A stretch of 56,096 bases of DNA from an uncultured bacterium. GTDB taxonomy: Bacteria > Muiribacteriota > Ozemobacteria > Ozemobacterales > Ozemobacteraceae. Under the pieces are notes generated by a model. That model did not search any database and was not told the origin of the DNA. It saw only the letters and a list, made by a program, of their open reading frames with translations. Position numbers and translations under genes: made by a program. Within the stretch, counting starts at the first letter, position 1. Every line of letters starts with the position of its first letter. Location: positions 1-56,096 of the forward strand of contig CAZQYQ010000001.1 in the NCBI GenBank assembly GCA_964597625.1. The letters run 5' to 3'. Positions 3,490-50,737 of this stretch are shown piece after piece.

Positions 3490-6307
<2,818 letters not shown>

Positions 6308-7424: not shown

Positions 7425-7426
7425 AT

Positions 7427-9546: not shown

Positions 9547-9553
9547 GCTCCCG

Positions 9554-22279: not shown

Positions 22280-22385
22280 CATGTCGGGGCCGGCTGATCG
22301 AATCATGGACAAATGGGTAATCCCGTGTATATTGTACAGAAGATAGTAGATGAGAGATCACATTTCGTGATTCAAGTGAGGATCA

Positions 22386-29740: not shown

Positions 29741-29936
29741 ACCCGCTCCTTTCACGCTTCGCCCAACCGGCATGTCTCGAGCCGACACCGGGCCGATACC
29801 AAGAACGTAACATCTTCACCTGCGGATTGCCCCGCTGATATCCACATTCTATCAAAATCGGGGGTGCGGATGAAGTCCGCAGTTGAGGTGCAGAGAAAAA
29901 CCGGCTAAAATGGGGCAAAATGGAGGATCAGATCAG

Positions 29937-34588: not shown

Positions 34589-35062
34589 TTATCCCTTTCC
34601 CCATCTGGAGAAAGGGTTCCTGGTCAGGCTGGAATTGAAATATTTCGGATCGCCGGTCACTTCCTGACCGATCCATTCGGGAAGATCGACCACCTGCTTT
34701 TCATCGCTCAGTTCGACTTCCGCCACGATGAGCCCCTGATTGTCGCCACCAAATTCATCGATCTCCCAGGTCACCGGCCCTGCGGCGATCCTGTAGCGGT
34801 TCTTTTCGATGAGAGGTTTCTCGCAGAGGCTGCTCAGCATCTCGTTTGCCTCGGCAGCGGGAATCCCGTATTCATACTCGGCCCGGGCCGCTCCGACCGT
34901 GACGCCTTTGATGGTCAGAAAGCCTTCATCCCCGATGATGCGTATCCGGATGGTACATTCCCTGGCAATCGACAGATACCCCTGTCGATACGGAACACCC
35001 CTGGCCAGTTTGCGCCAGGCTTCGCCCTTGATCAAAAATTTGCGTTCGATTTCTTTTGCCAT
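34589..35062 (-). CDS. CYTH-domain protein (CyaB / thiamine-triphosphatase fold; triphosphate tunnel metalloenzyme)
   Basis: ATG 35062 is preceded by GAAGGAGA. N-terminal EIERKFLI (ExExK motif), then ...IRIRI...LTIKG...EYEY...WEIDEF...GLIVAEVEL, characteristic of CYTH. Confidence 0.85.
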   Translation of the reverse strand: MAKEIERKFLIKGEAWRKLARGVPYRQGYLSIARECTIRIRIIGDEGFLTIKGVTVGAARAEYEYGIPAAEANEMLSSLCEKPLIEKNRYRIAAGPVTWEIDEFGGDNQGLIVAEVELSDEKQVVDLPEWIGQEVTGDPKYFNSSLTRNPFSRWGKG

Positions 35063-35148
35063 GATCCTGTCTCCTTCGGCCCAGGAGAGTGTCTCTTCGA
35101 ACTCGCTCTCACGCATGTCATCACATGGAACGAAGCGGCTGAGCCGGG

Positions 35149-36396
35149 TTAAAACCCTGTCGCTTCGGCCAATCCGATTTTCTGCATGACGGCTTTCATC
35201 TGATACAGCTTTTTGGACGCATACCAGTCGCCCTTCTGTACGAGTTTGAAGGCCAGCATTTCGCGCACATGGGCCATCAGCGGTATGAGTGCGGGAAGCT
35301 CCGTCCCGTCGAATTCTGCGATGCGCGCAATCAGCTTGTCGAACGTCTCATATCGGTTTTCGTCGAATTCCCGCTGGAGGCGGTTCATGACGAACTTCTC
35401 CCGGCTGGCGATCCGCCCGGCGGCAACCGGATCATCGGGCCGGTCCTTCAGCCGGCGCCATTCCCGGCAGATCCGCCTCAGGCAGATTTCCATCGGGGCT
35501 TCCACCGTGAGCCTGTATGATATATTATGAGCTATTGATTTTGATATGCGGCTGCCGACAAAAGCACCAACCACGCTGCCGGCACCGGGAGCGATGACCG
35601 AACCGACCGCAGCGCCGAGTGTCGCGCCGATCAGTCCACCGGTCTGGTCGATGCCTGCCCGGAGAATGGCGACGCAGCAGAAATCGGCGAAGCTCCCGTT
35701 CTGGACCGCTTCGCGCGCGAGATCCCGGATCCGGTCCGAATCGTGCTGCACGGCATTGGCGACCAGTTCCGCGCCTGTCGTCGAAAGGGACTCCTTGGAA
35801 AAGGAGGTGAGTGTTTTGGTCACGGCTTTTGCAGCAAGACGGGTATCGAACTTCGTCACGAAGGTGAGAATCGTTTCACCCGCCTTCTGGAACGCGAGTC
35901 CGCCGGCAATGTCGATGAACTCCTTCGACAGATCATAGACAAGCCGGTCGAGAAACACGACGACATCGCCCTGAAACCGGAAACCAAGGTTTCCCTCACG
36001 ACGCTGCATCGCAAACAGGGTCAGATCCCAGGCAATATCCGAGTCGCTGGTAAAGGAGCGGTCGGCCAGATCGTCAGCGAACGGCAGCTTTCCGCTGAAT
36101 GTTGCCGCCCCGTCGAACGTGACAAATAACCGTCGAAGACTGCGATCATAGAAGCCCTGTCCGATGTTGAGCCTGACATGCGTTCCGGCATTCAGATGCC
36201 CCGCAAAGGCCTCGATACGGTTCTGCAGGATGACGGCCGTTTTTACAAGGAGTTCATCCGCTTTCCCGGGGAGGCGCGCCATGAAGGCCGTGTCACTGGA
36301 TTTCCCGGCGGAAGCCGCCTGAAGGGGCATGAACCCGGCGAGGCCCAGAAGGATGGGCAGGAGACTCAGCACAAACAACCGCCGCAAGAGATTCAT
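35149..36396 (-). CDS. hypothetical secreted or membrane-associated protein with a glycine-zipper segment
   Basis: Signal peptide MNLLRRLFVLSLLPILLGLAGFMPLQAASA and a Gly-zipper GGLIGATLGAAVGSVIAPGAGSVVGAFVG. No family recognised. Confidence 0.55.
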   Translation of the reverse strand: MNLLRRLFVLSLLPILLGLAGFMPLQAASAGKSSDTAFMARLPGKADELLVKTAVILQNRIEAFAGHLNAGTHVRLNIGQGFYDRSLRRLFVTFDGAATFSGKLPFADDLADRSFTSDSDIAWDLTLFAMQRREGNLGFRFQGDVVVFLDRLVYDLSKEFIDIAGGLAFQKAGETILTFVTKFDTRLAAKAVTKTLTSFSKESLSTTGAELVANAVQHDSDRIRDLAREAVQNGSFADFCCVAILRAGIDQTGGLIGATLGAAVGSVIAPGAGSVVGAFVGSRISKSIAHNISYRLTVEAPMEICLRRICREWRRLKDRPDDPVAAGRIASREKFVMNRLQREFDENRYETFDKLIARIAEFDGTELPALIPLMAHVREMLAFKLVQKGDWYASKKLYQMKAVMQKIGLAEATGF

Positions 36397-36436
36397 CTCG
36401 CAATCCCCTCTTCCTGAATGATCTTCTCATTCTAGC

Positions 36437-36684
36437 ATGTCAGATCACCCAACACGTCTCGTCGATCGCAAACTCCTGACCGAAGAGAACGGCATTCGGA
36501 ACGTGACGGGTGTCCGGCACGATGCAGGGCTTGTTTCGTGCCCGATCTGTTTTATCTGATGGAATACGGCGCGCTGAAACTGAGCCTCACCGGAGGCGAA
36601 CACGGCACCATCACCGGCGTCCGCCTCACTTCCCAGGGAATCGACCTCTATGAACAGCTGATTCCCCACAAATACGACTTCTGA
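36437..36684 (+). pseudogene. possible frameshifted small ORF (two ~41-codon halves in adjacent frames)
   Basis: ATG 36437 opens MSDHPTRLVDRKLLTEENGIRNVTGVRHDAGLVSCPICFI*. The next frame continues (V)PDLFYLMEYGALKLSLTGGEHGTITGVRLTSQGIDLYEQLIPHKYDF* to TGA 36682-36684. Joined by a 1-nt shift, this would give an ~85-aa protein. No homology recognised. Confidence 0.2.
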
Positions 36685-36705
36685 TCTTCTCCGACCAGGG
36701 AACCG

Positions 36706-37812
36706 TCAGGGTTTCAGCCGGTAGATGTGAAAACTTTCGTAGATAAATGAGCGGTCGATCTCGAACAGCCGCTTCGCAAGCTCGGGTTCGGCGATCAGGC
36801 GTTCGGCATTGGCGGCATCAAGCTGCCTGGGCCGTGCGAGCGTGTAGCGCCAGCAGAGACGGGCGCCTGGACGGCTGAGTTCGAGCATTTCACGAATGAC
36901 GCCGTTGAAGAAGTCGTGTTCCATCCACTCGAAGATGTTCGACATCTGCAGGGCGTCGAAGCTCGCCGGGCCGTATTTTTTCAGCACGTCGCCGCAGGTG
37001 CCCTGATAGATCTCGAGCCGGCCGATATTCGCTTTCATCTTCGGCCAGTTCGATTCGAGCAGATAGGGTGACATCGCCTGGCGGGACCAGTGGCCGCCCA
37101 GCAGCATCAGCGCCATGAAATAGTTGTCAGGATTATAAAAATCGGTCATGCCCTTGTCGATCTTGCGGGTCAGATTGCCTGCCAGATCAGGGTCTTCGAC
37201 CATCGCGAACGAGTGTGCGCCCTTGACGAGGCTGAGCACGAACTTGTTCAGCAGAATGCTGTTCAGAAACCGCCAGCGGCGCCGTTTCATGCCGAGATAC
37301 GCGGACTTCTGCGCGGCAAGATCGGGGCATGTGAACAAGGCTTCCATTTTTGAAAAATCGTAGAGCCAGCCGAGGATCTTCCGGTACAGGTCAAAAAACG
37401 CCTCGACCTTGCCGCACCAGAAAGCGCCTTTTTCGATCAGATGGGGATTTTCATCCCAGAATCCGGCCGCAGAGGCGGGAAGCAGGCTGCGGATCTTCCG
37501 GTAGAGGTCAAGCCGCTGCGGGCCGCTCAGCCGCGGGGCTTTGCCGTAGAACGGCACGCCGATCACTTCGAGGAAATCCTCGTAGTCGAGCCCGATGATC
37601 GCCGCGCGCTTCAATTCGAGCATCGCCAGCTGGGCCGGGTTCAGATCGATCGAGACGACCCGTGACGGATCTTCCAGCAGCAGGCAGAGGGAGTTGCAGC
37701 CCCCCGACGTGATCGAAAGAACGGACTGGCCGGGTTTGACCTGCAGCGCCTGCCGGTTCAGCTCCGGATCTTCCCATACGTTACTGTAGACAACCGCAGG
37801 TTTGTTTCCCAT
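36706..37812 (-). CDS. DUF3419 / BtaA-like SAM-dependent 3-amino-3-carboxypropyl transferase family protein
   Basis: VVYSNVWEDPELNRQALQVKPGQSVLSITSGGCNSLCLLLEDPSRVVSIDLNPAQLAMLELKRAAI matches the N-terminal signature of the BtaA/DUF3419 family, including SAM motif I. AAAGGA RBS. Confidence 0.75.
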   Translation of the reverse strand: MGNKPAVVYSNVWEDPELNRQALQVKPGQSVLSITSGGCNSLCLLLEDPSRVVSIDLNPAQLAMLELKRAAIIGLDYEDFLEVIGVPFYGKAPRLSGPQRLDLYRKIRSLLPASAAGFWDENPHLIEKGAFWCGKVEAFFDLYRKILGWLYDFSKMEALFTCPDLAAQKSAYLGMKRRRWRFLNSILLNKFVLSLVKGAHSFAMVEDPDLAGNLTRKIDKGMTDFYNPDNYFMALMLLGGHWSRQAMSPYLLESNWPKMKANIGRLEIYQGTCGDVLKKYGPASFDALQMSNIFEWMEHDFFNGVIREMLELSRPGARLCWRYTLARPRQLDAANAERLIAEPELAKRLFEIDRSFIYESFHIYRLKP

Positions 37813-37854
37813 CGATGCAATATCCTTTCATATCTATCACGACAATCCGCTTCA

Positions 37855-40179
37855 TCAGGCGTTCTGGCGTCCACGGTCGAGGTGGGTGCGGAACATGCAG
37901 ATCAGCGCCGGCATGATCGTGATTTCGCACAGCATGCCGAAGACGATCGTCAGGGCCAGGAGACCGCCGAAGAGAATGACCGACTTGATGCTGGCGAACA
38001 CAAGCGCCGAAAAGCCCAGGGAATAAATGATCGACGTCGATATGACCGCCGGCCCCGCTTCGATGAGACAGTCGCTGATCGACTCGACCGGATCGAGGTG
38101 CCGCCTCGAAGGCTCATAGAACAGGAACAGCTCGTGAATCGTATCGTCGACGGCGATTCCCAGCGCGATGGATGCGATGGTGACAGTCGCGATATCCAGC
38201 TTGATTCCCAGCCAGCCCATCATTCCCATTGTCATGATGACCGGAAACACGTTGGGAATGATCCCGAGCCAGATGGCATCGAACCGTCTCAGCAGCAGGG
38301 CCATCGCGAGAAAGATGAAGAACAGGGCTGTTCCAAAGCTCGAAAGCTGACTGCTTGTAATATAGTTGATGATACGTGCATACAGCGGAACATAGCCGCC
38401 GAACTTGATCGTCACACCGGTGCCGTCATAAATCCGCCTGAGCAGCTCGTCCGCCTTTCCCTCGAAATCACGCAACTGCGAGGCACTGACCATCGGAAGC
38501 CTGACCGTCAGGCGGGCTTCGCTGTAGTTGGGGACGTCCGTCATGTGTACAAGATCATTGTCCGGATCGGATTCATACAGCATGAGCAGCTGACTGACCG
38601 CGTTGAACGAATCAGGAACGCGATACGAGGAGGTCGCTCCATCGCTCATGACCTGATTCAGTTTGCGCAGCACATCGAGGATCGAAGCGGCGCGCTGGAC
38701 CTGGGGAATCGCTTCCAACTCATCATGAGCCCGACGGAGTCTGTTCAGAAATTCCGGATCCTTGATGCCGTCAGTCTTCCCGGTCAGCAGGCGGATTTCC
38801 AGCGGCAGATAGTTGCCGTAATCCCGTTCAACCGCATCGCTGTCAATCCGCACCGGATTCGACGCATGGAGAAACCCCATCGAGTAGGTATCGACCTTGA
38901 GATGCGCGATACCGACGAATCCGAAGACGGTCGCCAGGACCAGAAGCCCCATGACCAGCTTGTAATGCTTCGGCATCAGGCGCACCCACGAATCGACGAC
39001 GCCTGCAAACGGCCGCCGCAACTCCATCCCATGACTCGGCTGAAGTTTTCCCAGGATAAACGCCGCGGATATCATCGCGAACAGATACTCGAACATGCAG
39101 GCGGTGCCCGCGAAGAAGCCGAACCCTTTCAGTACCGCCATCGGGCTCGTGATGATCGACCAGAAGCCGAGCGCATTCGTGATCGAGGTGAACAGGCACG
39201 GGGAAAGGCACTCGATGAAAACCTGTTCGAGCCCTTTTTCCCGATCCTCCGCAATTTTGTCGAGATTATAGCAATAGTTATTGTATACATAGGCGACGTC
39301 CGAGATCGCCAGGATGATCATCAGCGTCGGCAGCACGATCGTCACCATATTGAAGTTCTGACGGAAAAGCCCGTAAAACCCAACGAACCAGCCACCACCC
39401 AGGAGCATCACAACCACGACGATTCCCAGGAAGGGTTTCGACCGGTACAGGAGGAATATCACCAACGCGATGACAATGCTGGATATCAGCGAGAACAAAA
39501 ACCCGTCGCGAATGCTGAGCCGGTTGAGTTCATCGTACATGACGCCCATCCCGGCGAGTCTGTAGGAAAAGCCCTGCAGTTTTTCACGGACCGCCGCGAT
39601 CATCTGCGGCCGCCGGACGTCCATGTCGGGAGTCGCGACCGGCTCTATCAGGAGGACCGCGAATCGCTGCGCCAGGTCGGTGAGCAGTTTTTTCTTGAGC
39701 GGGTCACTCAGGAATTTTTCACGTATATGTTCAGCATCTGAAGCCGTTTTGACATCGGCCGTGATCAGATCCTCGACGATCAGGGTGTCGCTGCCCTGCA
39801 GCCCGATGTAGGGGGCAACGCCAATGCTGAGAACACGCCTGAAGTTCGCTTCATCAGCCTCGATGGCCTTCGACGTGATCCAGAGGGACTGAAGTTTATC
39901 GGGGTCGAAGATCCTGCCGGGTCCACCGCAATCAATCAGCGCCAGAATGATCTCATCGTTGCCGTACTGCTTCTTGAATTCGCGATACCCGGTCAGGGTC
40001 GGATCCTCCTCGAGGAACCACGACTCGAGACTGTTATCGATGCGAATCTGCGTTGCGAAAGGCAGCCCGGCGAGAACGAACAGAACCGAAAGGATGAACA
40101 GGATGTTTCGGTGCCGCACCAGCAGCCGCGCGCAAGCCGAAAAGAAGGGGGACGGCTTGTGAGAAACGTCTTCACTCAT
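37855..40179 (-). CDS. RND-superfamily exporter of the MMPL/HpnN type
   Basis: 774 aa with a 2 x (1 TM + large soluble loop + 5 TM) layout. MMPL-like GIAVDDTIH motif. The ATG overlaps the upstream stop (ATGA). Confidence 0.85.
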   Translation of the reverse strand: MSEDVSHKPSPFFSACARLLVRHRNILFILSVLFVLAGLPFATQIRIDNSLESWFLEEDPTLTGYREFKKQYGNDEIILALIDCGGPGRIFDPDKLQSLWITSKAIEADEANFRRVLSIGVAPYIGLQGSDTLIVEDLITADVKTASDAEHIREKFLSDPLKKKLLTDLAQRFAVLLIEPVATPDMDVRRPQMIAAVREKLQGFSYRLAGMGVMYDELNRLSIRDGFLFSLISSIVIALVIFLLYRSKPFLGIVVVVMLLGGGWFVGFYGLFRQNFNMVTIVLPTLMIILAISDVAYVYNNYCYNLDKIAEDREKGLEQVFIECLSPCLFTSITNALGFWSIITSPMAVLKGFGFFAGTACMFEYLFAMISAAFILGKLQPSHGMELRRPFAGVVDSWVRLMPKHYKLVMGLLVLATVFGFVGIAHLKVDTYSMGFLHASNPVRIDSDAVERDYGNYLPLEIRLLTGKTDGIKDPEFLNRLRRAHDELEAIPQVQRAASILDVLRKLNQVMSDGATSSYRVPDSFNAVSQLLMLYESDPDNDLVHMTDVPNYSEARLTVRLPMVSASQLRDFEGKADELLRRIYDGTGVTIKFGGYVPLYARIINYITSSQLSSFGTALFFIFLAMALLLRRFDAIWLGIIPNVFPVIMTMGMMGWLGIKLDIATVTIASIALGIAVDDTIHELFLFYEPSRRHLDPVESISDCLIEAGPAVISTSIIYSLGFSALVFASIKSVILFGGLLALTIVFGMLCEITIMPALICMFRTHLDRGRQNA

Positions 40180-42998
40180 GAGGCTGCTCCGGCGATACCA
40201 TCACTTCCGTCGGCTCGTTCAAGAATGCGGACGATTCCCGTCGTTCCATCCATCTCGACCAGATCGCCGGTCTTCACGCGCTTCGTTATGCCGGTTATCC
40301 CGACGATCGCGGGCAGACCGAGCTCCCGCGCCACGATCACCGAGTGCGAAAGCATGCTTCCGCGCTCGATAAGAAGTCCGGCTGCCGTCGCGAACAGCGG
40401 CACCCAGCCGGGATCGGTGCGTGCAGCGACAAGGATCTCTCCATTGAGCTGCATGTCATCGTTCGGGTTGAGAATGACCTTGACCCGCTTTCTGACGACA
40501 CCGGAACAGCCGCCGATCCCCTGGAGCAGGTTCGGATCATCACTCTGCTGCATCTTCAGAACGCTTTTGTTCAGGTCGTTCGTGTAGACGATGCCCGTCG
40601 TCTCGATGCGGTCGGGCAGCTCATCCATCGCCCTGTATGCGTCGAATTCGGCTTTACGCACGGCAGCCAGTTCCCGCAGTCTCTGGCTGATGGCCGTGCC
40701 GACGACATACGACAGGAGTTCATCCTTATGCAGATAAAACACATCTTCGTGATGGTCGATGATGCCGCGTTCGGCAAGCCGACGGCCGATGCCGACATAG
40801 ATCCGGCGGGCCAGGCCGTACATTTTCGTGCGGGCGAACCGCTGGTATTCCCGCACCGCGACAGCCTTCTTCGCATACTCGGTCACGAACTGCATGATCG
40901 GCAGCTTGGGAAAGAAGCCCCAGAGTTTCTGATCGCGGAGGGCATCCGCGACGCGTTTCTCGGCCTCCTCGCGTTTCCTCGCCTCCTGCCGGCCCGTGTC
41001 GTCTTCGGCCGGGAGCGCGCCTGCGGCGTAGTTTTTCAGCATGCTGAACAAAAACTCGGGTTTTTCGTTGAGTGACGGCTCCTCGAGCTTGAGCTCATTC
41101 ATCGTGCGAAAGCCGAATTCATCGAGATACGCAGAGATCTGCGCCGCGAGCTCGCGTTCTTCCGCCGGCGCTTCGGCTCCATTCGCTCCCTTCCCCGTCC
41201 GCCGGATGAACCGTGTTTTGAGCGCTGCGGCATCGAGCGTCTGGAACAGCCCGGCAAGGTCGGCATGCGATTTGATGAACCGCGCCATTTTCTGCATGGA
41301 CCGCATTGGAAGGGTACTTTCAACATTTCCCTGGCCCGCGACGAGATCATTCTGCAGCGAATGTTCGGCATTCGGAAGCCAGGCTCCGATCAGCGATTTC
41401 AGCACGCCGTAAAAAATCATCGCCATGAAGTCGTTGATGATCGGCGCTTTCCAGTTCCGCAAAACCGTGTTTTCGAGCTCGTTGTAGATATCGACGAGCC
41501 TGTGAGCCGGCTGATGGTCGAAATCGAAATCCTTGTATTTATTATACATTTTTGTATATATATCCATGAATTTCTTCACTTCGGCATCGATGGTCCAGAA
41601 TTTCCAGGCGAGATTGACGCCGACCCAGGCCATGCGGGGCAGTTCGATCAGCCATCGTCGGAAAAACCCCGACTGTTTCCGGTCCTCATGGGACTCGGTC
41701 GCGAACTCGAACGTCGCCTTCACTCCCATCATCCCTTCCATGAACCGGGAGTTGAAGGAGTAGCCGGGCAGGACGGAAACGAGGCGATACCAGTTTTTCA
41801 GGTTATAATATATTCTACCGTTTAAAAAACCCAGCATATTGCCGAAATTGAAATCGTATTTCCGGATGGTCTCTTCGGGAACGCCGAGCACCTGGCAGAA
41901 TTGCACATAGACGTTGTGATACGCATGAAGGGCGAACGAGAAGGTCAGCGGCGTCGTCACGCCCGAGTAGCTCTCGACGATGTTCGAGTTGTCCCAGAGC
42001 GTGACGTATGACCGTTCTGACGGCCAGGGTTGTTCGACAGTCGTGACCGGCCGGGCCTGGAGAATCTTGATGCGCCCGTCACGGGCGATCGTCCATTCGA
42101 TGTCCTGCGGCACGCCGCCATATTCGCGCTCGATCCGGTGGCAGGCCGCGGCAATCGCCCAGACCTGCTTTTCATCGAGACACGGCTTCCCAGCTTCTTC
42201 AACCGGAATCGGCTCTTCGATGGTCCCGTATCCCTGGGCGCGATCGAATACCACGCGTTCATCCTTGTGAGCGATCTCGCTCGAATCGATCGGGTATCCG
42301 TCTTTCTTGAGGACAACGAACCGGTCGGCATCCACCCCGCCCGAAACGAGTCCCTCGCCAAGACCCCAGACGGCATTGATCAGGATTTCGTCTTCATACT
42401 TCGTCTGCGGGTTCACCGTGAACGTGACGCCGGACGCGATACCGTCGATCATCTCCTGAACCACGACCGCCATCGCAATGCCATGCTGCGCGATTTTCCG
42501 CATGAACCGATAGGAAACGGCGCGATCGGAATACATCGATGCCCAGCAGCTCACCACCGACAGGGCGATTTCGCTCTCGGTGCGACAGAACAGATAGGTG
42601 TCGAGCATGCCGGCATACGAAAACTCTTTCGAATCCTCACCAAGCGCGCTCGATCTGACCGCCACGAACGCGCCGTCCCCGATCTTCCCGCGAAGCGCCC
42701 CATACATTTCGTCAGCGATATTACTCGGAAGCGGGTGCGAAACGATGCAGTCGCGGACGATTTTCGAGGTCTCCGCGACGCGCATCGGCGATGACCCGTC
42801 GAGCATTTTTACGGCTGCATCGAACTCTTCGCGAAATCCGGCGATGAACGCATCGAAGCAGCGGCTCGAGACGATGACGAACGGCGGCACCTCCGCTCCG
42901 GATGCGACGAGCCGGAGCAGATTCGCTCCCTTGCCGCCCGCAATTTGAGCGGCTTCAGCCGCCGACATCGAGTTCGGGGTGATGATGCGGTCAGACAT
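40176..42998 (-). CDS. PEP-utilising-enzyme family phosphotransferase: PPDK_N ATP-grasp, ~500-aa unique central region, phosphohistidine swivel domain; no PEP/pyruvate TIM barrel
   Basis: AAGGAG RBS. N-terminal GGKGANLLRL...QDIEWTIARDGRIKILQARPVT (ATP-grasp). C-terminal ILVAARTDPGWVPLFATAAGLLIERGSMLSHSVIVARELGLPAIVG (mobile His domain). 940 aa. Confidence 0.85.
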   Translation of the reverse strand: MSDRIITPNSMSAAEAAQIAGGKGANLLRLVASGAEVPPFVIVSSRCFDAFIAGFREEFDAAVKMLDGSSPMRVAETSKIVRDCIVSHPLPSNIADEMYGALRGKIGDGAFVAVRSSALGEDSKEFSYAGMLDTYLFCRTESEIALSVVSCWASMYSDRAVSYRFMRKIAQHGIAMAVVVQEMIDGIASGVTFTVNPQTKYEDEILINAVWGLGEGLVSGGVDADRFVVLKKDGYPIDSSEIAHKDERVVFDRAQGYGTIEEPIPVEEAGKPCLDEKQVWAIAAACHRIEREYGGVPQDIEWTIARDGRIKILQARPVTTVEQPWPSERSYVTLWDNSNIVESYSGVTTPLTFSFALHAYHNVYVQFCQVLGVPEETIRKYDFNFGNMLGFLNGRIYYNLKNWYRLVSVLPGYSFNSRFMEGMMGVKATFEFATESHEDRKQSGFFRRWLIELPRMAWVGVNLAWKFWTIDAEVKKFMDIYTKMYNKYKDFDFDHQPAHRLVDIYNELENTVLRNWKAPIINDFMAMIFYGVLKSLIGAWLPNAEHSLQNDLVAGQGNVESTLPMRSMQKMARFIKSHADLAGLFQTLDAAALKTRFIRRTGKGANGAEAPAEERELAAQISAYLDEFGFRTMNELKLEEPSLNEKPEFLFSMLKNYAAGALPAEDDTGRQEARKREEAEKRVADALRDQKLWGFFPKLPIMQFVTEYAKKAVAVREYQRFARTKMYGLARRIYVGIGRRLAERGIIDHHEDVFYLHKDELLSYVVGTAISQRLRELAAVRKAEFDAYRAMDELPDRIETTGIVYTNDLNKSVLKMQQSDDPNLLQGIGGCSGVVRKRVKVILNPNDDMQLNGEILVAARTDPGWVPLFATAAGLLIERGSMLSHSVIVARELGLPAIVGITGITKRVKTGDLVEMDGTTGIVRILERADGSDGIAGAAS

Positions 42999-43010
42999 CG
43001 CAAAGTCTCC

Positions 43011-43397
43011 TTATTTGTTCAGCACACAGAATCCGGCGTTGAGATAGGTCGCAAAACTCACCCAGACCAGATAGGGAACCAGCAGCAGGGCAGAAACCGG
43101 ATGGTTCCGCCGGAAATGAGCAATAATGCCGATCAGCGTCACGACAAGGAACAGAATGTCAGCCAGGGCCGCCACGGGCGACTGGCGACCGAAAAACAGC
43201 GGTGTCCAGGCCAGGTTTGAAGTAACGTGCGCGGCAATCAGCGCATTGATCCGCGCAGGCACGCGCCCACGCTCCGCGCGATAAAACAGGAACAGCGATG
43301 CCGCAATCATGAGATACAGGATGGTCCAGACCGGGCCGAATATCCAGCCTGGCGGGGTCAGTGGTGGCCGCTTCAGTGTCTCATACCAGGCGTTCAT
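43011..43397 (-). CDS. tspO: TspO/MBR-family protein, short form lacking the first TM helix
   Basis: It begins directly at the conserved loop WYETLKRPPLTPPGWIFGPVWTILYLMIAA, followed by about 4 TMs. At 128 aa it is shorter than the ~150-160 aa usual for TspO. Confidence 0.75.
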   Translation of the reverse strand: MNAWYETLKRPPLTPPGWIFGPVWTILYLMIAASLFLFYRAERGRVPARINALIAAHVTSNLAWTPLFFGRQSPVAALADILFLVVTLIGIIAHFRRNHPVSALLLVPYLVWVSFATYLNAGFCVLNK

Positions 43398-43421
43398 CCC
43401 GGCTCGGGTTCCTTTCGTTTT

Positions 43422-44360
43422 CTACATCCCCAGGACATAGCAGGCATTCCAGACCCGATATGCGCCCGCAACGATGGCAACGTGGTATCCGAGCAGGTAA
43501 AAGGTCACCACGCCGCGGTACAGCTTCGCCACGGCCGCCGTCGGCCGTATCGCGTACATGGCCCCGGCAAGAACGACAACAGCGACCAGCGAGCCGGCAG
43601 CCCCGATCAGCATTTCGGGCCAGATCGGGAAAATTGATGCGCAGGCTATCCAAAGCAGGAAATAGCCGATCAGCATGTTCGCGACCAGCAGGGCGACGGC
43701 GCCGGCGGGCCCCAGGCGGAGCGAATAGGAATCAACGCCCGCGCGCTCCTCTTCCCTGCCGAATGTCTTGCGGCCGAACTCGAACACGTTGAACACGAAC
43801 CAGTTGCCGAGCGCGAATGTCGCAAATCCCGAACCGACGGCCACGAATTGATTCCCGGTTGCCATCGAGCAGGAAAGAAAGCCGAGCATCGTTGCCGAGA
43901 ACGTGTGCGTGATCGCATACAACTCCATCTTCGGCCGCATCCAGTCGCCGACGAAGAACTCCATGCGCATCAGCAGGGTGAAACACAGCACCATCACCAT
44001 CGTCGAGAATGACGCCCAACCCATATTGGCCGCTATAGCAAGTTCGGTCAGGATGACGAACAGCGTCGCCGTGCCGAATTCGCCAAGGCTGATCAAACCT
44101 CGCGCAAGCGGCCGGTTCGGGTTGTGTTCGCGGTCGTAGGCCTCGTCCTTCACTTCATCGAACATCCGCATGTGAAGAAACACGAGCCACACGACCACAA
44201 AGCCTGCCGCAAGACGCACCGGGCTGAAGGCATATCCGCCGCCCGGCGGTCTGCCCATCATCACATTTGCCGCGTAAAAAGCAGCGACGGTCAGCGTAAT
44301 GCCGATCGGTTCGTGCCGCTCGCGCAGGAACTGCCACCAGCGAAGAATCAATGCCTTCAT
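43422..44360 (-). CDS. UbiA-superfamily prenyltransferase-like membrane protein
   Basis: 8-9 TMs. The first Asp-rich motif is FDEVKDEAYDREHNPNRPLARG. A second loop motif, EEERAGVDSYSLRLG, resembles DxxxD...G..s. The ATG overlaps the ligase stop (ATGA). Confidence 0.65.
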   Translation of the reverse strand: MKALILRWWQFLRERHEPIGITLTVAAFYAANVMMGRPPGGGYAFSPVRLAAGFVVVWLVFLHMRMFDEVKDEAYDREHNPNRPLARGLISLGEFGTATLFVILTELAIAANMGWASFSTMVMVLCFTLLMRMEFFVGDWMRPKMELYAITHTFSATMLGFLSCSMATGNQFVAVGSGFATFALGNWFVFNVFEFGRKTFGREEERAGVDSYSLRLGPAGAVALLVANMLIGYFLLWIACASIFPIWPEMLIGAAGSLVAVVVLAGAMYAIRPTAAVAKLYRGVVTFYLLGYHVAIVAGAYRVWNACYVLGM

Positions 44361-46135
44361 TTTCTTGCCTGTCCCGGCGCCGCATCCTTCAGGAGAGCGT
44401 CACGCAGAACGCCGTATTCGACCTTGCTGTGATGCCGCGGATCCATGGGGATATTGTCGACCGTTCCAGCATGATCGAACGGCACGGCGGCTTTATCCAG
44501 CTCTGTTGCCAGTTCCGCAAGAATCCGGTCCTTGTTCGGATCGTTCAGGTCATGAAGCTGCACCAGCGCCCAGGCTTTCTCGCCAAGTTTCTCGTCAGGC
44601 ATGCCGATGAAGGCAGCCTGTTTGACCGCCGGGTGGCGCTTGAGCAGCATCTCGACCTTGACCGGGAACAGCATCTGCTCGCCCCGCAGGATCGCATTGT
44701 GAACGCGGCCGACCAGCCAGACGTTGTTCTGAGCATCGAGCCTGGCCAGATCGCCGGTGCGGTGCCAGACTTTGCCGTTCGACTCGATGACTTTCGTTTT
44801 GGCGATGGCATCAGGGTCGTTGTAATAGGATTTGCAGACATGCAGCCCCGCAACGACGAGTTCGCCGACCTCGCCCTTTTTGACTTCGAGAGGCGTCCAG
44901 TCGTCGTTCGCAAGGGAGATGTTCGTTTTTTTGATTTTAATGAACCTGTATTCGAGCCCATGCGCGAAATGGCCGACATTCACCCCGTCTGTTCCGGCTT
45001 CGCCATGCCGCGGATGCAGAATATCAGTCGCCTCGATGTGGGCGATCGGTTCAACCTCGGTTGAGCCATACAGCACCCAGATCTCCGATTGTGGCACGGC
45101 CTTTTTCATGAGTGCCAGCGTTTCGTTACTGATCGGGGCGCCGCCCGTGATGATGCGGCGAAGGCTGGGCATCTGAATATTTCTCGCGGCGCAGAACTCG
45201 GAAATGCCCACCATCATCGAGGGTGACAGGGTTGCGCAGGTGATTTTGCAGCTCAGCATCTGGCTGACGAGCATCAACGGATCGCGTTCAGTCGGTCTGC
45301 CGATATCCGAAATCGGAATGATGGTGGTTACACCGGCAGCGAGGTTGTTGAGCGAAAAGATCGGGAATGCCGGCAGATCGTAATCCTTTTCGGTATACGG
45401 CAGGCACTCATCAAGCGCGTAATGCTGCGATGCGAGAAACTGGTGCGTGCGGTTGGCCCCCTTCGGAACGCCGGAGCTTCCGGTGGTGAAGGTGATCAGC
45501 GCCGTTTCTTCCCCTCCCACCGCGACGATCTCTGGAAGCGGACTGCATGTCTGAAACTCTTCGACGCTTCCCGTATAGGCTCCCGTGTGGGGGCCACATA
45601 CTATTTTAATAGGTATTTTTGCCAGTTCAGGCTCGTCGGCGCAATACTGGAACGCCTGTTCAAAGCTGATGAACGCGCTCGCACCGGCGATCTTCGCGCT
45701 GATGCCCAGCTGGGACCTGCGCGCCCAGGAGTCGAGGAAAACCACGCTGGCTCCGAGCATCTGGACCGCAGCCATGGTCTGATACAGACGCAGCGACATC
45801 GGCAGAAAGATGATGACGCGGTCGCCATGCCTGATACCGATTTCCCTCAACCCGCTCGCCGTTCGGCGGATCAGGTCATTAAAAACGTCGAACGTGACCT
45901 GCTGATGCGCGACATCGGTGACAATCTGATCGTTCCAGACAGGCAGCTTTGACGGATCTGCCCATCGGAAGGCGATTCCCCGGGGTTTGTTGTTCCTATG
46001 ACGCTCGATGAGGGAAACCACGTTGTTGCGCGCATCGATCCCGTCAAAGAAACCGATCGATCTGTTCTGATGCTTTTCGCATTCCGACATTCTGCCTCTC
46101 TCCCTCCATGCTGGCGCCATAAAACGCATACTCAC
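44357..46135 (-). CDS. adenylate-forming enzyme (AMP-dependent synthetase/ligase superfamily)
   Basis: ITFTTGSSGVPKGANRTH (AMP-binding core motif), VLYGSTEVEPIA and WHRTGDLARLD. The start may be ATG 46090 (MSECEK...) rather than 46135. Confidence 0.85.
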   Translation of the reverse strand: MSMRFMAPAWRERGRMSECEKHQNRSIGFFDGIDARNNVVSLIERHRNNKPRGIAFRWADPSKLPVWNDQIVTDVAHQQVTFDVFNDLIRRTASGLREIGIRHGDRVIIFLPMSLRLYQTMAAVQMLGASVVFLDSWARRSQLGISAKIAGASAFISFEQAFQYCADEPELAKIPIKIVCGPHTGAYTGSVEEFQTCSPLPEIVAVGGEETALITFTTGSSGVPKGANRTHQFLASQHYALDECLPYTEKDYDLPAFPIFSLNNLAAGVTTIIPISDIGRPTERDPLMLVSQMLSCKITCATLSPSMMVGISEFCAARNIQMPSLRRIITGGAPISNETLALMKKAVPQSEIWVLYGSTEVEPIAHIEATDILHPRHGEAGTDGVNVGHFAHGLEYRFIKIKKTNISLANDDWTPLEVKKGEVGELVVAGLHVCKSYYNDPDAIAKTKVIESNGKVWHRTGDLARLDAQNNVWLVGRVHNAILRGEQMLFPVKVEMLLKRHPAVKQAAFIGMPDEKLGEKAWALVQLHDLNDPNKDRILAELATELDKAAVPFDHAGTVDNIPMDPRHHSKVEYGVLRDALLKDAAPGQARK

Positions 46136-46231
46136 CTCACCACCCTATCACGGAGGATCTGAGGAAACAATGTCATTGCATCGTGATATCATCGCGGAAA
46201 GAGGCGTTATGGAACTTCACTTTTCGAGGAA

Positions 46232-46633
46232 TTGCGCATGATACGGAACGTTCATTTTATCCTCTATGTCGCTGACCAGGAACGCTCGACCGCGTTTTAC
46301 CGCCGGATTCTCGGCATCGAACCACGTTTGAACGTCCCCGGCATGACGGAATATGACCTTCCCGGGGGCGCGGTGCTCGGCCTCATGCCCGAGCGTGGCA
46401 TCAAACGTCTGCTGGGCGCCGCCCTGCCTGATCCGGCCTGGGCGAATGGCGCTCCGCGCGCGGAGGTGTATCTGATCGTCGACAACCCTGTTGAAGCCCA
46501 TCAGAAAGCGATCGCCATGGGTGCGGTCGAGGTCAGCCCGCCGCTCGAACGGGACTGGGGCCATCTGGCTGCCTACAGCCTCGATCCGGATGGTCACGTC
46601 CTCGTTTTTGCCTGCCCTGCCGGCGGAAAATGA
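46232..46633 (+). CDS. VOC (glyoxalase/bleomycin-resistance/dioxygenase) family protein
   Basis: 133 aa. [25 protein letters not shown]...[20 protein letters not shown]...[18 protein letters not shown] is a typical paired beta-alpha-beta-beta-beta module. Confidence 0.8.
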
Positions 46634-48678
46634 CGGCAGTCACAAAAAACCCGATAAGGATTTTCATGAGTGAGAGCAGCAGGAAAGAAGTGCATCCCGT
46701 TTTCAAGCCGTTCGAGTCTGTTTCCGGCTCCAGCATGCCGCGCAACAAGATCGTTTCGGCTGCCGAAGCCGTTTCGATCATTCGCGACGGCGACACGGTC
46801 GCAACCGGCGGTTTTGTCGGCATCGGGTTTGCGGAGGAGCTTGCCCTGGCTCTTGAAGCCAGGTTCCTCGAAACCTCCCATCCGGGAAATCTGACGCTGG
46901 TCTACGCGGCCGGCCAGGGCGATGGGAAAGACCGCGGCCTCAACCGGCTCGGCCACGAAGGGCTGTTGAAAAGAGTCGTGGGCGGCCACTGGGGACTTGT
47001 CCCGAAACTTCAGAAACTGGCGCTTGAAAATAAAATTGAAGCGTACAACCTGCCGCAGGGCGTCATTTCCCACATGTACCGGGATATCGCGGCCCACAAG
47101 CCCCGCACGATCACTTCCGTCGGTCTCGGCACGTTCGTCGATCCACGCATCGACGGAGGGAAAATCAACTCGGGCACGACCGAACAACTGGTCGAGCTGG
47201 TCCAGTTCGACGGCCGGGAGTATCTCGCATACAAGACGTTTCCGATCAATGTCGCGCTGCTGCGGGGCACCTCCGCCGACGCGGAAGGGAACGTTACCAT
47301 GGAGCGGGAGGCCCTGACGCTGGAAGCGGTATCCCTGGCGACGGCCGCAAAAAATTCAGGCGGCTTCGTCCTCGTGCAGGTGGAGCGGATTGTCGAACGG
47401 TCCAGCCTGAACCCGCGCCTGGTCAAGATCCCCGGAATCCTCGTCGACTGCATCGTCGTGGCGCGTCCCGAACATCACTGGCAGACGTTCTCAACGCCCT
47501 ATAACCCGGCTTTTTCCGGTGAAATCCGTGTTCCGGCCGGGTCCCTGCCTCCCATGCCGCCGGGTGATCGCAGGATTATCGCCCGCCGAGCGGCGTTCGA
47601 ACTCGAGCCGAACAGCGTGGTCAATCTTGGAATCGGCATGCCCGAGGGGGTCGCCTCGATCGCCAACGAGGAAAAGATCATCGAGTATCTCACTCTCACG
47701 GCCGAACCTGGCGTCATCGGCGGCATTCCGGCGTCAGGTCTGGACTTCGGGGCCGGAACGAATACATCATCCATTATAGATCAGCCCTACCAATTCGACT
47801 TTTACGACGGAGGCGGACTCGACACGGCCTTTCTCGGACTTGCCCAGACGGATCGGGAAGGCAATCTCAATGTCAGTAAATTCGGCCCCCGGCTCGCCGG
47901 CGCCGGCGGGTTCATCAATATCAGTCAGAATACAAAAAAAGTCGTTTTTGTCGGCACCTTCACCGCGGGAAAGCTCGAACTGGAGATCACGGATGGCAGG
48001 CTGCGCATTCTCAGCGAAGGGAAGACAAAGAAGTTTCTCCAGCACGTCGAGCACGTCACATTCAGCGGGAAACACGCCGTTGCGCGGCAGCAGCCGGTTC
48101 TGTATGTCACCGAGCGCGCCGTGTTCCGCCTGACGGCGGATGGCATGGAGCTCGTCGAGATCGCCCCGGGCATCGATCTTGAGCGCGATATTCTCGCGCA
48201 GATGGAATTCCAGCCGGTCATCAGGCACGCTCCCCGCCTCATGGATGCGCGCATCTTCAGCGATGGCCCGATGGGATTGCGGGAACTGCTGCTCGCGGTG
48301 CCCCTGTCGGCACGTCTGACCCTGAACCTGCATCTCGGCATCCTGTTCGTGAACTTCGAAGGATACAATATCTCGTCAGAAATACAGATCCGGCAGATCG
48401 AGGAAGCCGTTTCCGGTCTGATCAAACCGCTCGGGAAGAACGTCGGCGCCATCGTGAATTACGATCACTTCACGATTTTACCCGATCTCGTCGATTCCTA
48501 CACGACGATGGTCGAACGGCTTGTCAGGACGTATTACAGCGGCGTCACACGCTTCACGACCAGCGCATTCCTGCGCGTGAAACTTGGCGAGGCGCTGAGC
48601 GATCGCGGCGTTTCCCCCTATATCTACGAAAGCCGCGAAGAAGCCGAGCGTGCACTCACGCATATCAAGGGCTCCTGA
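46630..48678 (+). CDS. family I acyl-CoA:carboxylate CoA-transferase (YdiF/Pct-like, fused alpha/beta) with a ~145-aa C-terminal extension
   Basis: ATGA overlap with the VOC gene. [32 protein letters not shown] marks the N-half, and [14 protein letters not shown] holds the catalytic Glu region. The body is colinear with ~530-aa propionate/acetate CoA-transferases, followed by extra C-terminal sequence. Confidence 0.85.
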
Positions 48679-49415: not shown

Positions 49416-49880
49416 TCAGTTCGGCGGAGCATACGTGAATCCCTTGATGGTCATTTTCCGCTTCGGTGCGCCTGCCGGGGCTCCCGGCATTCTGAACTGC
49501 GTTTCAACATCGATCAGCCGGTATCGGGGATCAGCCCCTGCATTCACATTCACAACCATGTGATAGGTAACGCTTCCGACTTTTCTATCGCCGTCCCACC
49601 GCTGAAATACCTTCGTGAATGTGGCATTCGACGAGTTTGCGATCTCGTCGTATCTCATCGACTGAAAGTCGGCAAGGCAGGAAAGCAGCTGCGCGTTCGC
49701 GACAACCGAGTCACGCGCGGCGATCGACACGCGCCGGGCACTGATGAAATGTTTGACAAGCGGCATCAGAAGAACCGCCAGCACAATCATTGCCACGACG
49801 AGTTCCACAAGAGTAAAGCCATGCCTCGATGAGATTTTCCCGCATTGACGCTTCATTTCATCTTTTTCCGGATCATTCAT
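49416..49880 (-). CDS. prepilin-type N-terminal methylation-domain protein (pseudopilin-like)
   Basis: ...SSRHG|FTLVELVVAMIVLAVLLMPL carries the canonical class III signal peptide motif with Glu+5. 154 aa. Confidence 0.7.
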   Translation of the reverse strand: MNDPEKDEMKRQCGKISSRHGFTLVELVVAMIVLAVLLMPLVKHFISARRVSIAARDSVVANAQLLSCLADFQSMRYDEIANSSNATFTKVFQRWDGDRKVGSVTYHMVVNVNAGADPRYRLIDVETQFRMPGAPAGAPKRKMTIKGFTYAPPN

Positions 49881-49893
49881 AAAATACGCCAGA

Positions 49894-50619
49894 CTATTCA
49901 GATACTTTCACCACATCCACGCGTCTGTTTTTTGCCTGCTGTTCTTCGGAGTCCCCTTCATTGCCCCGCTGCCCCATGCCCGCGTAATCGATACGGGTAG
50001 ACAGGATTCCGTGATCGACAAGCCAGCTTTTCACGGCATAGGCGCGCTGAACCGAAAGTTCGTAATTGTAATCGACCGCCCCCCGGTAATCCGTGAACCC
50101 CTCGATACGGATTTTCAGGGTCGGCCGGCTTTTCATCATCGATACTATTGTATTCAGCGCAGGAATCGATGAAGACTTGATGACAGCCATGTCGTAGTCG
50201 AACAGGATCCCGTCGACGGAGACCTTCCCGCTCGCATCCAGATCAGCACCGAACGCTTCTCCGGCCACCCCGTCGATGGTGACATCGAAGCCGTCTTCCT
50301 TGTATTCAGCGACGGATTGGGATTTCAGCTGAATCGGCGTCCTGCCGGTGGGCGGCGCGACAACCGTCGTATTCCCGGCCCCGGGAGTTCCTGTGATAGC
50401 ACTTACGCGCGGATCGCCCGCGGCAGGCATCGCCTGGGTCGCAACGGCAGACCGGGCGGGGACCACCTGCATCTCGACCTCGTTCCCCTGCTGACCGAAA
50501 ATGACGCCGTATCTTGCCGCCTGATCTGCAGCCCCAAGCGGCATCGCACAGATGATGACCGCCAGCAAGAGAAGGATGCCCTTCTCACGGAGCTTTTGAA
50601 TATCAATCAATATTTTCAT
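49894..50619 (-). CDS. OmpA-domain (peptidoglycan-binding) protein, paralog B
   Basis: ATG 50619 is preceded by GAGAGG, with a signal peptide (ILLLLAVIICAMPLGA). C-terminal OmpA_C-like KIRIEGFTDYRGAVDYNYELSVQRAYAVKSWLVDHG...NRRVDVV. Confidence 0.8.
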   Translation of the reverse strand: MKILIDIQKLREKGILLLLAVIICAMPLGAADQAARYGVIFGQQGNEVEMQVVPARSAVATQAMPAAGDPRVSAITGTPGAGNTTVVAPPTGRTPIQLKSQSVAEYKEDGFDVTIDGVAGEAFGADLDASGKVSVDGILFDYDMAVIKSSSIPALNTIVSMMKSRPTLKIRIEGFTDYRGAVDYNYELSVQRAYAVKSWLVDHGILSTRIDYAGMGQRGNEGDSEEQQAKNRRVDVVKVSE

Positions 50620-50737
50620 ATGCAACCTCTCTTTTTCCTTGTTTCCAGGAACAGGAACGAGCCACGCATGCGGCACGTTGACCACCGCCCCCGGGGATCG
50701 GGCTCCCTCCACGGGGCACCCCGGCCGATCGGAGCGG

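Follow-up and report, generated by a model that had tools for sequence, protein, structure and literature searches.

A conserved multi-phylum gene cluster with a candidate role in the assembly and export of an unusual envelope lipid, as represented in an Ozemobacteraceae genome

Membrane transferases of the UbiA superfamily, dikinases of the rifampin phosphotransferase (RPH) type, BtaA-type enzymes that use S-adenosylmethionine (SAM) and lipid exporters of the RND superfamily are each known from described systems, and relatives of all of these are encoded side by side at one locus in the DNA analysed here, a stretch of 56,096 nucleotides from an uncultured bacterium of the family Ozemobacteraceae (positions 1 to 56,096 of contig CAZQYQ010000001.1, GenBank assembly GCA_964597625.1; hereafter the window). 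The archaeal DGGGP synthase (6M31, 7BPU), a UbiA-superfamily enzyme, acts within the membrane, where it builds an ether bond onto a lipid alcohol that is phosphorylated. In the phytol salvage of plants and cyanobacteria (VTE5, VTE6 and UbiA-type transferases), a lipid alcohol is phosphorylated stepwise and is then used by a UbiA-superfamily enzyme; the sequence from phytyl-phosphate to phytyl-diphosphate to a UbiA-type transferase is an established precedent in plants. The preceding step, from phytol to phytyl-phosphate, likewise has a precedent in phytol kinase (PMC4737080). Enzymes of the RPH family convert ATP and an alcohol into the phosphate ester, AMP and Pi through a swivelling phospho-histidine (PMC4844700), and their relatives act on prodiginine precursors (PMC13534948), on zearalenone (PMC11768653) and on hydroxyphenylethanones (PMC12167813). 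BtaA, the SAM:diacylglycerol 3-amino-3-carboxypropyl transferase of the btaAB operon, and the RND lipid exporters HpnN and MmpL complete the list of the closest described systems.

These systems were compared with six genes of the window, which encode an adenylate-forming ligase (A2), a divergent UbiA-like transferase, a short TspO, an RPH-like dikinase, an MMPL transporter and a DUF3419 protein (Table 1). We put at about even the chance that this locus is the Ozemobacteraceae version of a conserved, uncharacterised cluster of multiple phyla that assembles and exports an unusual envelope lipid. The enzyme families are known, and so are lipid biosynthesis and export operons as a kind; the gene combination and the route that it would imply are not described. 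Full-text literature searched with the family names and taxa combined contained no description of this gene combination, in agreement with a first-pass annotation, made from the window sequence alone, whose author had not recognised it as a described pathway. The window DNA also occurs on a JGI metagenome contig, and the closest relatives of the window proteins came from metagenome-assembled genomes (MAGs) of Candidatus Riflebacteria and Ozemobacteraceae.

Linkage of the genes across phyla

The divergent UbiA-like protein was used as the marker for synteny, and the neighbourhoods of its homologues were inspected with precomputed Pfam annotation. Its family comprises 643 representatives at E <= 1e-30 among 1.84 billion protein cluster representatives. 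A scan of one genome per GTDB species yielded 174 relatives, and 80 loci were kept. Their gene content was determined by calling open reading frames (ORFs) and by BLASTP against reference proteins, and unsupervised clustering of all ORFs agreed with the result. Counts were taken from 37 species-representative loci with at least 6 kb upstream and at least 8 kb downstream of the UbiA-like gene. Of these 37 well-flanked loci, 33 had the RPH-like dikinase, 28 DUF3419, 26 a formyltransferase, 21 ligase A2, 10 MMPL and three TspO. The recurrent families were the UbiA-like protein, the RPH-like dikinase, two kinds of ANL ligase, DUF3419, Formyl_trans_N, MMPL, LolA_like and a membrane protein of about 457 aa; besides these, ORF clustering placed no family in more than 12 of 82 loci.

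The genes for ligase A2, the UbiA-like protein, the RPH-like dikinase, MMPL and DUF3419 recur together across at least 10 phyla. They were found in Riflebacteria, Wallbacteria, Omnitrophota, Planctomycetota, Nitrospirota, Latescibacterota, Verrucomicrobia, Armatimonadetes and Myxococcales, in a Nomurabacteria genome of the candidate phyla radiation (CPR), in Bacillota MAGs, and in cultured Bdellovibrio bacteriovorus and other Bdellovibrio species; nearly all of the Riflebacteria representatives recovered carry the cluster. A compact version of it (L082 or L080) comprises 12-13 genes. Ligase A2, the UbiA-like protein, the dikinase, DUF3419 and an exporter thus travel together. Of the six genes that the first-pass annotation had combined into one candidate pathway, five recur together across phyla and TspO does not, and most relatives add a formyltransferase, alpha/beta-hydrolases, an acid-to-alcohol module and a lipid kinase. 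The idea of a dedicated locus for lipid synthesis and export, put forward in the same annotation, is strongly backed by the synteny across phyla and by a ligase-UbiA fusion. In this fusion protein (P0230), A2 and the UbiA-like domain form one polypeptide, to which the window ligase is 43% identical over 545 aa, and its gene is accompanied by a reductase-kinase fusion, MMPL, DUF3419, a split RPH-like gene, a formyltransferase and an alpha/beta-hydrolase.

The acid-to-alcohol module of the relatives occurs in two versions. The first (Riflebacteria, Wallbacteria, Omnitrophota and others) consists of a FadD-like ligase, A1, and a class-I-type HMG-CoA-reductase homologue, which is often fused to A1 and scores 364 bits against an equivalog cut-off of 442. 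The second (Bdellovibrionota and the CPR genome) has a short-chain dehydrogenase/reductase (SDR) of the NAD_binding_4 ('male sterility') type, accompanied in Bdellovibrionota by a protein of about 710 aa with a domain like acyl-ACP reductase and the PigE N-terminus (150 bits to the PigE N-terminal domain). From their families, both versions are predicted to start from an activated acid and to yield an aldehyde or alcohol. A canonical mevalonate role of the HMG-CoA-reductase-like gene was judged unlikely, since the protein scores below the cut-off and is fused to kinases or to ligases of the fatty-acid type, and no other mevalonate-pathway genes recur. An alignment with a human HMG-CoA-reductase sequence suggested that the homologue keeps the catalytic residues and has Glu for Ser684, which we treat as a lead and not as evidence.

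The extra kinase belongs to one of three unrelated types depending on the lineage, namely DAGK_cat, APH/EcKL or a phytol/dolichol-kinase-like membrane protein. The APH/EcKL kinase of locus L093 is fused to an HMG-CoA-reductase-like domain, and more than 120 protein clusters show this reductase-kinase fusion, among them those of the cultured Vibrio nigripulchritudo, Paenibacillus and Pseudobacteriovorax. A protein of 1498 aa (P0335; positions 6767-11263 of locus L096) joins AMP-binding, carrier (PP-binding), HMG-CoA-reductase-like and APH/EcKL kinase domains, a layout that resembles a carboxylic-acid reductase to which an HMG-CoA-reductase-type reductase and a kinase would have been attached. 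The reductase-kinase fusions suggest that the product of the reductase, an alcohol, is phosphorylated. The third kinase type, the polytopic protein of about 457 aa, carries the motifs RK.VH..G, D..A...G..YG, K[ST].EGS and G.DN, and its relatives appear at JGI under the names 'phytol kinase' or 'dolichol kinase'. It was found at L006 4983-6356, L059 6900-8279, L010 14282-15067 (minus strand) and L079 3550-4200 and in 11 other loci; the phytol/dolichol-kinase motifs lie in the N-terminal 215 or so residues, and the long form adds about 240 residues of helices. A six-helix protein of 238 aa in locus L002 was rejected as a phytol-kinase-like candidate by hidden Markov model (HMM) search.

The formyltransferase keeps the N-x-H / LLPxxRG / Asp signature, and its nearest relatives are Fmt, sugar N-formyltransferases and ArnA; its presence therefore points to an amine somewhere in the product. 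Carrier proteins (acyl or peptidyl) were searched for with four seed sequences in all loci, and none was found. As reductases, exporters and kinases are exchanged for non-homologous ones between lineages, the same pathway logic appears to be kept.

One further cluster was observed around a fusion of the HMG-CoA-reductase-like domain and the EcKL/APH kinase, at about 4378-13005 of locus L095 (Vibrio nigripulchritudo). It is a different cluster of lipid type and also encodes inositol-1-phosphate synthase, a CDP-alcohol phosphatidyltransferase, FAD_binding_4, START-like, sulfotransferase, DegT aminotransferase and CarS-like (CDP-archaeol-synthase-like) proteins; it appears to put the putative module leading from acid to alcohol to phosphate to a second use, likewise undescribed.

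Cluster proteins of the window and their closest relatives

All six genes were found in the ORF list of the window on one strand and at exactly the coordinates given in the first-pass annotation (Table 1). The junctions had also been described there correctly: those between the ligase and UbiA-like genes and between the RPH-like and MMPL genes, read directly from the sequence, are ATGA overlaps of start and stop codons, and the coordinates of the other three give gaps of 24, 12 and 42 nt. The two overlaps and the short gaps bear out the operon-like packing proposed, and the order of the genes is conserved in relatives. HMM scans confirmed the family assigned to each of the six products, in the case of the UbiA-like protein through a family profile and a structure model, its Pfam score being sub-threshold.

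Table 1. Coordinates and family assignment of the cluster genes, the LolA_like gene and the adjoining intergenic region in the window
Feature	Position	Strand	Basis
Adenylate-forming ligase A2	44357-46135	minus	Pfam AMP-binding and AMP-binding_C
Divergent UbiA-superfamily integral membrane transferase	43422-44360	minus	Sub-threshold Pfam UbiA, family profile and fold
Short TspO, 128 aa	43011-43397	minus	Pfam TspO_MBR
RPH-like ATP-dependent dikinase	40176-42998	minus	Pfam PPDK_N and PEP-utilizers
RND-superfamily MMPL / HAE3-type transporter	37855-40179	minus	Pfam MMPL, Patched and Sterol-sensing
DUF3419 protein, BtaA-related SAM-dependent enzyme	36706-37812	minus	Pfam DUF3419
LolA_like periplasmic lipid-carrier homologue	28961-29788	minus	Pfam LolA_like, 149 bits
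Divergent intergenic region, presumed promoter	46136-46231		Between the cluster and the plus-strand glyoxalase / CoA-transferase pair

The UbiA-like protein scored 30.5 bits with Pfam UbiA, just under the gathering score of 34.2, and a single-sequence search of the PDB gave no useful match. A family profile built from an alignment of 18 homologues matched archaeal DGGGP synthase 6M31 with E = 7e-9, and the AlphaFold model (pLDDT 89.7, pTM 0.90) retrieved DGGGPS 6M31/7BPU as its top Foldseek matches (TM-score 0.62-0.68), followed by 4TQ4 and 4OD4 (the Archaeoglobus and Aeropyrum UbiA homologues). Membership of the UbiA superfamily is secured by the profile match to 6M31, the model and its Foldseek matches, and these predictions place the window protein in a divergent branch. 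The first acidic motif is invariant in the family (FDExKDxxxD...RPLxxG), and D68-E-x-x-D72-x-x-x-D76 ... R83-P-L-x-x-G88 aligns column by column with N-D-xx-D-xxx-D ... RPLPSG of 6M31, of which it is a conservative variant. In contrast, the second DxxxD is absent from the family alignment and replaced by N..FN.FEF.RK..EE (N186 ... F190-N191-x-F-E194-F-x-R197-K198 ... E204-E205). Identity to the archaeal enzyme, the nearest solved relative, is about 15%, and no GGGP-synthase or GGPP-synthase partner recurs around the UbiA-like gene; archaeal lipid synthesis uses neither an ANL ligase nor an RPH-like dikinase, both of which are linked to the UbiA-like family. A prenyl-diphosphate synthase is not a regular member of the cluster, since ORF clustering brought out no non-cluster family above the limit given above. 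The first-pass annotation was thus right about the superfamily, but prenyl transfer is unproven given the missing second DxxxD and the lack of a recurrent prenyl-diphosphate synthase, and the chain transferred may instead be the cluster's own phosphorylated alcohol.

The window ligase matched Pfam AMP-binding (136 bits) and AMP-binding_C (34 bits), and its nearest NCBIfam model was PRK09274, 'fatty acid CoA ligase family' (349 bits, cut-off 478). It carries the ANL core motifs TGSSGVPKG, YGSTE and TGD and the C-terminal Lys, and shows no FDxS-type Asp for an alpha-amino group. In other phyla, the ligase encoded immediately 5' of the UbiA-like gene was 45-62% identical to it, as against only 21-24% for A1, the ligase fused or adjacent to the HMG-CoA-reductase-like gene; by these identities the window ligase is assigned as an orthologue of A2 and not of A1. 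Its true start is probably ATG 46090 rather than 46135, because this ATG is preceded by GGAGGG, the public gene call is 577 aa long and the orthologue alignment begins at residue 16.

The dikinase has the architecture of an ATP-grasp domain, a central substrate domain and a swivelling-His domain, with Pfam matches to PPDK_N (265 bits) and PEP-utilizers (81 bits) and a precomputed Rph_4th domain. Its catalytic His motif, GSMLSHSVIVARELGLP, contains SH. The best NCBIfam model was NF004881, which carries the generic name 'phosphoenolpyruvate synthase'; the window protein scored 866.9 bits against the cut-off of 883, and Bdellovibrionota orthologues passed it, one of them with 1093 bits. The scores were far lower for the rifampin phosphotransferase models RIF_Ptrans_rph NF041857 (343 bits, cut-off 999) and NF000283 (250 bits, cut-off 1700), the two PigC/RedH models (365 and 398 bits, cut-offs 1300 and 1350) and PEP_synth TIGR01418 (300 bits, cut-off 740). 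Pfam detected only PPDK_N and the mobile His domain, and not the C-terminal domain with which a true phosphoenolpyruvate (PEP) synthase binds PEP or pyruvate. The best solved relative in a PDB search was the Listeria rifampin phosphotransferase (5FBS/5HV1). The dikinase thus shares its three-part architecture and catalytic His with rifampin phosphotransferase and PigC/RedH/HapC, but its context is biosynthetic and not one of resistance or pigment, and by its scores it would belong to none of the RPH, PigC/RedH and PEP-synthase equivalogs. A suspected fusion of the RPH-like protein with the formyltransferase in locus L076 was rejected as an out-of-frame upstream extension of the ORF.

The DUF3419 protein matched Pfam DUF3419 over its full length (214 bits) and contains a SAM-binding-type motif, SITSGGCN, features that it shares with BtaA of the same Pfam family; a single-sequence PDB search gave no useful match. 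It was only 25-27% identical to the products of plasmid btaA genes (Rhizobium, Chondrinema), which have a btaB-type methyltransferase gene directly downstream, and no gene for a BtaB-type N-methyltransferase lies next to the window DUF3419 gene. In a neighbour-joining tree the cluster-type DUF3419 proteins formed clades apart from canonical BtaA sequences. Judged by these comparisons the protein is not a canonical BtaA, and because of the low identity, the separate clade and the missing BtaB partner, transfer of an aminocarboxypropyl group can be proposed only by analogy with BtaA.

The transporter, with matches to Pfam MMPL, Patched and Sterol-sensing, consists of two MMPL / sterol-sensing halves with about 10 hydrophobic segments. 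It shares with HpnN and MmpL the RND/MMPL fold, the sterol-sensing-domain-like halves and, in relatives, a LolA_like gene beside the cluster. Its best NCBIfam match was nevertheless HAE3 (132 bits, cut-off 352), and the models for HpnN (56 bits, cut-off 752) and actII/MmpL (69 bits, cut-off 875) were far from their cut-offs. It is accordingly classified from these scores as HAE3-like and not as an HpnN or MmpL equivalog, so that the RND/MMPL family named in the first-pass annotation holds and the HpnN type, at equivalog level, does not. In Riflebacteria, Wallbacteria, Latescibacterota and locus L093 the MMPL gene adjoins those for the RPH-like and DUF3419 proteins, and Bdellovibrionota have ABC_tran and FtsX/MacB in its place; a LolA_like gene accompanies both exporter versions. 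The LolA_like protein of the window is 52-63% identical to those encoded directly after DUF3419 in other Riflebacteria. Its gene lies about 7 kb downstream of the cluster, beyond genes for a secreted 415-aa protein, a CYTH protein, a MatE transporter and a GH15 glycosidase; it is probably a displaced partner of the cluster, and its separation points to a rearrangement at this place. A 619-aa ORF was observed opposite the MMPL gene, on the plus strand (37882-39741); in all likelihood it is not a gene and results from the G+C-rich coding strand.

TspO had been counted among the pathway genes in the first-pass annotation, a role that its distribution and its length do not uphold. The match to TspO_MBR (135 bits) starts at profile position 21 and covers positions 21-143, and the 128-aa protein aligns with residues 29-145 of Rhodobacter TspO, transmembrane helix 1 being missing. 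BLASTP of the locus ORFs found TspO restricted to the five closest Ozemobacteraceae relatives (loci L001, L011-L015), and only these keep the short form, at 72-82% identity. Elsewhere the space between the UbiA-like and RPH-like genes is taken up by a gene for a weak GAF-like protein (Wallbacteria) or a xanthine/uracil permease (another Ozemobacteraceae genome). From this pattern TspO is regarded as a lineage-specific insert, a passenger that would not be part of the conserved cluster.

Proposed route and alternative readings

In the route that we propose, a long-chain acid would first be activated and reduced to a primary alcohol, in other lineages by A1 with the HMG-CoA-reductase-like protein or by the SDR with the acyl-ACP-reductase-like protein; because the reduction genes are not in the window, the alcohol would have to come from elsewhere in the genome. 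The RPH-like dikinase would then use ATP, via a phospho-histidine, to phosphorylate the lipid alcohol or its monophosphate, and elsewhere it may pair with a phytol-kinase-like, diacylglycerol (DAG)-kinase-like or APH/EcKL-type kinase to give a phosphate or diphosphate ester. The UbiA-like protein and A2 would then, in the membrane, link this phosphorylated lipid with another hydrophobic part, most simply through an ether as made by DGGGP synthase, with donor and acceptor of the chain left undefined. DUF3419 would add a SAM-derived group, either aminocarboxypropyl, by analogy with BtaA, or methyl, and where the formyltransferase is present the amine would be N-formylated. Finally, the MMPL transporter and the LolA-like carrier would deliver the lipid to the outer membrane.

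Like phytol salvage, such a route would phosphorylate a lipid alcohol stepwise and hand it to a UbiA-superfamily enzyme, and some versions of the cluster hold a membrane protein with phytol/dolichol-kinase-like motifs. It differs from phytol salvage in the apparent source of the alcohol, an activated acid that an HMG-CoA-reductase-like or fatty-acyl-reductase-type enzyme reduces; as its constant kinase the cluster has the RPH-type dikinase and not VTE6, and the window is without a phytol-kinase-like gene. A more specific version of this reading, which we consider possible but rather doubtful, is a new bacterial lipid route in which an alcohol, derived from an activated acid by an HMG-CoA-reductase-like or fatty-acyl-reductase-type enzyme, is converted to a phosphate or diphosphate ester by an RPH-type dikinase and a ligase-coupled UbiA branch joins a second chain, giving a glycerol-independent ether- or diol-type lipid with a SAM-derived, sometimes N-formylated, head group that is sent to the outer membrane.

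Several points weigh against the envelope-lipid reading. Each enzymatic step is derived from family membership and gene context. The window represents a reduced version of the cluster: a Pfam scan of most non-overlapping ORFs of at least 200 aa in the 56-kb window, on the strength of which the idea of formyltransferase and reductase genes in the window itself was dropped, found no formyltransferase, A1, thioester reductase or second kinase, and because of these gaps the model is transferred from relatives. A scan of 35000-46800 for promoter and terminator consensus sequences gave counts equal to those in shuffled sequence and was uninformative as to a single transcript. A saturated alkyl phosphate or diphosphate is a poor electrophile for ionisation of the UbiA type. 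As the second Asp-rich motif is replaced, the UbiA-like protein may catalyse something other than prenyl or alkyl transfer, and the altered motif together with the obligate ligase partner may indicate a different reaction, such as the use of an acyl-adenylate. The identity between the DUF3419 protein and known BtaA proteins is that of distant relatives. The membrane protein of about 457 aa had no match in Pfam, NCBIfam or the PDB, and its phytol-kinase-like assignment is based on conserved motifs and the automatic JGI names. Lastly, the best solved relative of A2 in a PDB search was 4-coumarate-CoA ligase, and the substrate may be an aromatic acid.

This last point leads to the strongest alternative, a prenylated aromatic compound of the quinone or tocopherol type, in which A2 would activate an aromatic acid, the UbiA-like protein prenylate it, the RPH-like enzyme phosphorylate the phenol, DUF3419 methylate it and MMPL export it. 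A2 also matches the MenE models of NCBIfam, JGI names the UbiA-like homologues '4-hydroxybenzoate polyprenyltransferase', and the menaquinone pathway, too, brings an ANL ligase and an alpha/beta-hydrolase together with a UbiA-type and a SAM enzyme; in addition, the RPH-family kinases of zearalenone and the hydroxyphenylethanones cited above act on aromatic hydroxyls. The UbiA-like profile, however, prefers DGGGP synthase, and 4-hydroxybenzoate octaprenyltransferase, the sole aromatic-acid enzyme that it detected, scored E of about 1. The partner genes in other lineages are of a lipid type (FadD-like ligase, fatty-acyl reductases, DAG-kinase-like, LolA_like), and ORF clustering found no recurrent gene for the synthesis of an aromatic ring or of prenyl-diphosphate. 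An aromatic product is therefore considered improbable, though it deserves to be kept in mind.

An ordinary betaine-lipid locus of the DGTS/DGHS type, with BtaA acting on diacylglycerol amid unrelated lipid housekeeping genes, would account for the full-length DUF3419 protein with its SAM-binding-type motif, canonical BtaA being of the same Pfam family. The missing BtaB-type neighbour, the low identity and the separate clade argue against it, and betaine lipids do not need the UbiA-like, RPH-like and ligase genes to which DUF3419 is linked across phyla; we hold this reading unlikely. Slightly less likely again is a metabolite like prodiginine or tambjamine, for which the RPH-like protein would be a condensing enzyme of the PigC/TamQ type, with ligase and reductase supplying a fatty aldehyde or amine. 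The PigC/RedH scores are about equal to that with the rifampin-phosphotransferase model, the Bdellovibrionota protein of about 710 aa matches the PigE N-terminal domain, and the formyltransferase implies an amine. Those scores are nevertheless far under their cut-offs, and no genes for bipyrrole synthesis and no pig-type, polyketide synthase, nonribosomal peptide synthetase or carrier-protein genes occur in any locus; presence in a genome-reduced CPR bacterium and throughout Riflebacteria, together with LolA_like, fits an envelope component better.

A module for resistance or detoxification, with the RPH-like kinase as the inactivating enzyme for a hydrophobic xenobiotic, rifamycin-like or other, MMPL as the pump that removes it and the remaining genes as bystanders, draws on the rifampin phosphotransferase as best solved relative and on the overlap of the dikinase gene with an RND transporter gene. 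It is very improbable, as the protein falls well below the rifampin-phosphotransferase equivalog cut-off, genes for biosynthetic enzymes are linked to that of the dikinase across phyla and most versions of the cluster have no MMPL. Chance adjacency of six unrelated genes is effectively refuted by the conserved order in at least 10 phyla, the translational coupling and the gene fusions. Taken together, these comparisons leave the envelope-lipid reading as the preferred one. It retains from the first-pass annotation the lipid synthesis and export locus, the operon packing and the families, and gives up the TspO and the HpnN type, with BtaA kept only as an analogy.

Surroundings of the cluster and biological meaning

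The intergenic region between the cluster and the divergent genes is presumed, from its position, to hold the promoter; a scan of this region for a sigma-70 consensus found nothing significant. On its far side (46232-48678, plus strand), a glyoxalase-fold gene overlaps the start of a gene for a 682-aa FadX-like CoA-transferase, and this pair has a possible link to acyl-CoA supply. A minus-strand glyoxalase ORF at 46217-46597 was rejected, the real gene being that on the plus strand at 46232-46633. Downstream of the CoA-transferase gene (49416-51505, minus strand) are genes for a protein with a prepilin-type N-terminal-methylation motif and two OmpA-domain proteins, which appear unrelated to the cluster. 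On the other side, 309 nt downstream of DUF3419, lies the gene for the 415-aa protein (35149-36396, minus strand), whose N-terminus resembles a signal peptide and which weakly matches a glycine zipper; L013 is the only one of the compared loci to conserve it (69% identity), and it is probably not a member of the cluster. Farther away, at 15124-23675 on the plus strand, two consecutive genes encode proteins of about 1000 aa with HAMP and adenylate/guanylate-cyclase domains; next come those for a ClpB-like AAA_2 ATPase and for a protein that has HATPase_c_2 and cNMP-binding domains, and the whole looks like a compact block for cyclic-nucleotide signalling. Rfam and tRNA scans of the whole window gave no match.

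The comparison flags a systematic misannotation, in which 'phosphoenolpyruvate synthase' stands for the dikinase and '4-hydroxybenzoate polyprenyltransferase' or 'manganese transporter permease' for the UbiA-like protein. If the more specific version of the reading is true, Riflebacteria, Omnitrophota, Planctomycetota, CPR bacteria and Bdellovibrio would have in common a lipid class that is new, and the UbiA and RPH families would each gain a new reaction. If the proposed route is right, the HMG-CoA-reductase paralogue would be an acyl-CoA-to-alcohol reductase, the RPH-type dikinase a biosynthetic lipid kinase, and the UbiA branch would be coupled to an adenylating enzyme. The cluster is carried by the cultured and genetically tractable Bdellovibrio bacteriovorus (loci L063 and L069), in which the proposal is directly testable. 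It would give several poorly known phyla a new envelope lipid, and in Omnitrophota, the CPR genome and the predatory Bdellovibrionota, which also carry the cluster, envelope lipids bear on predation, symbiosis and lipid scavenging.

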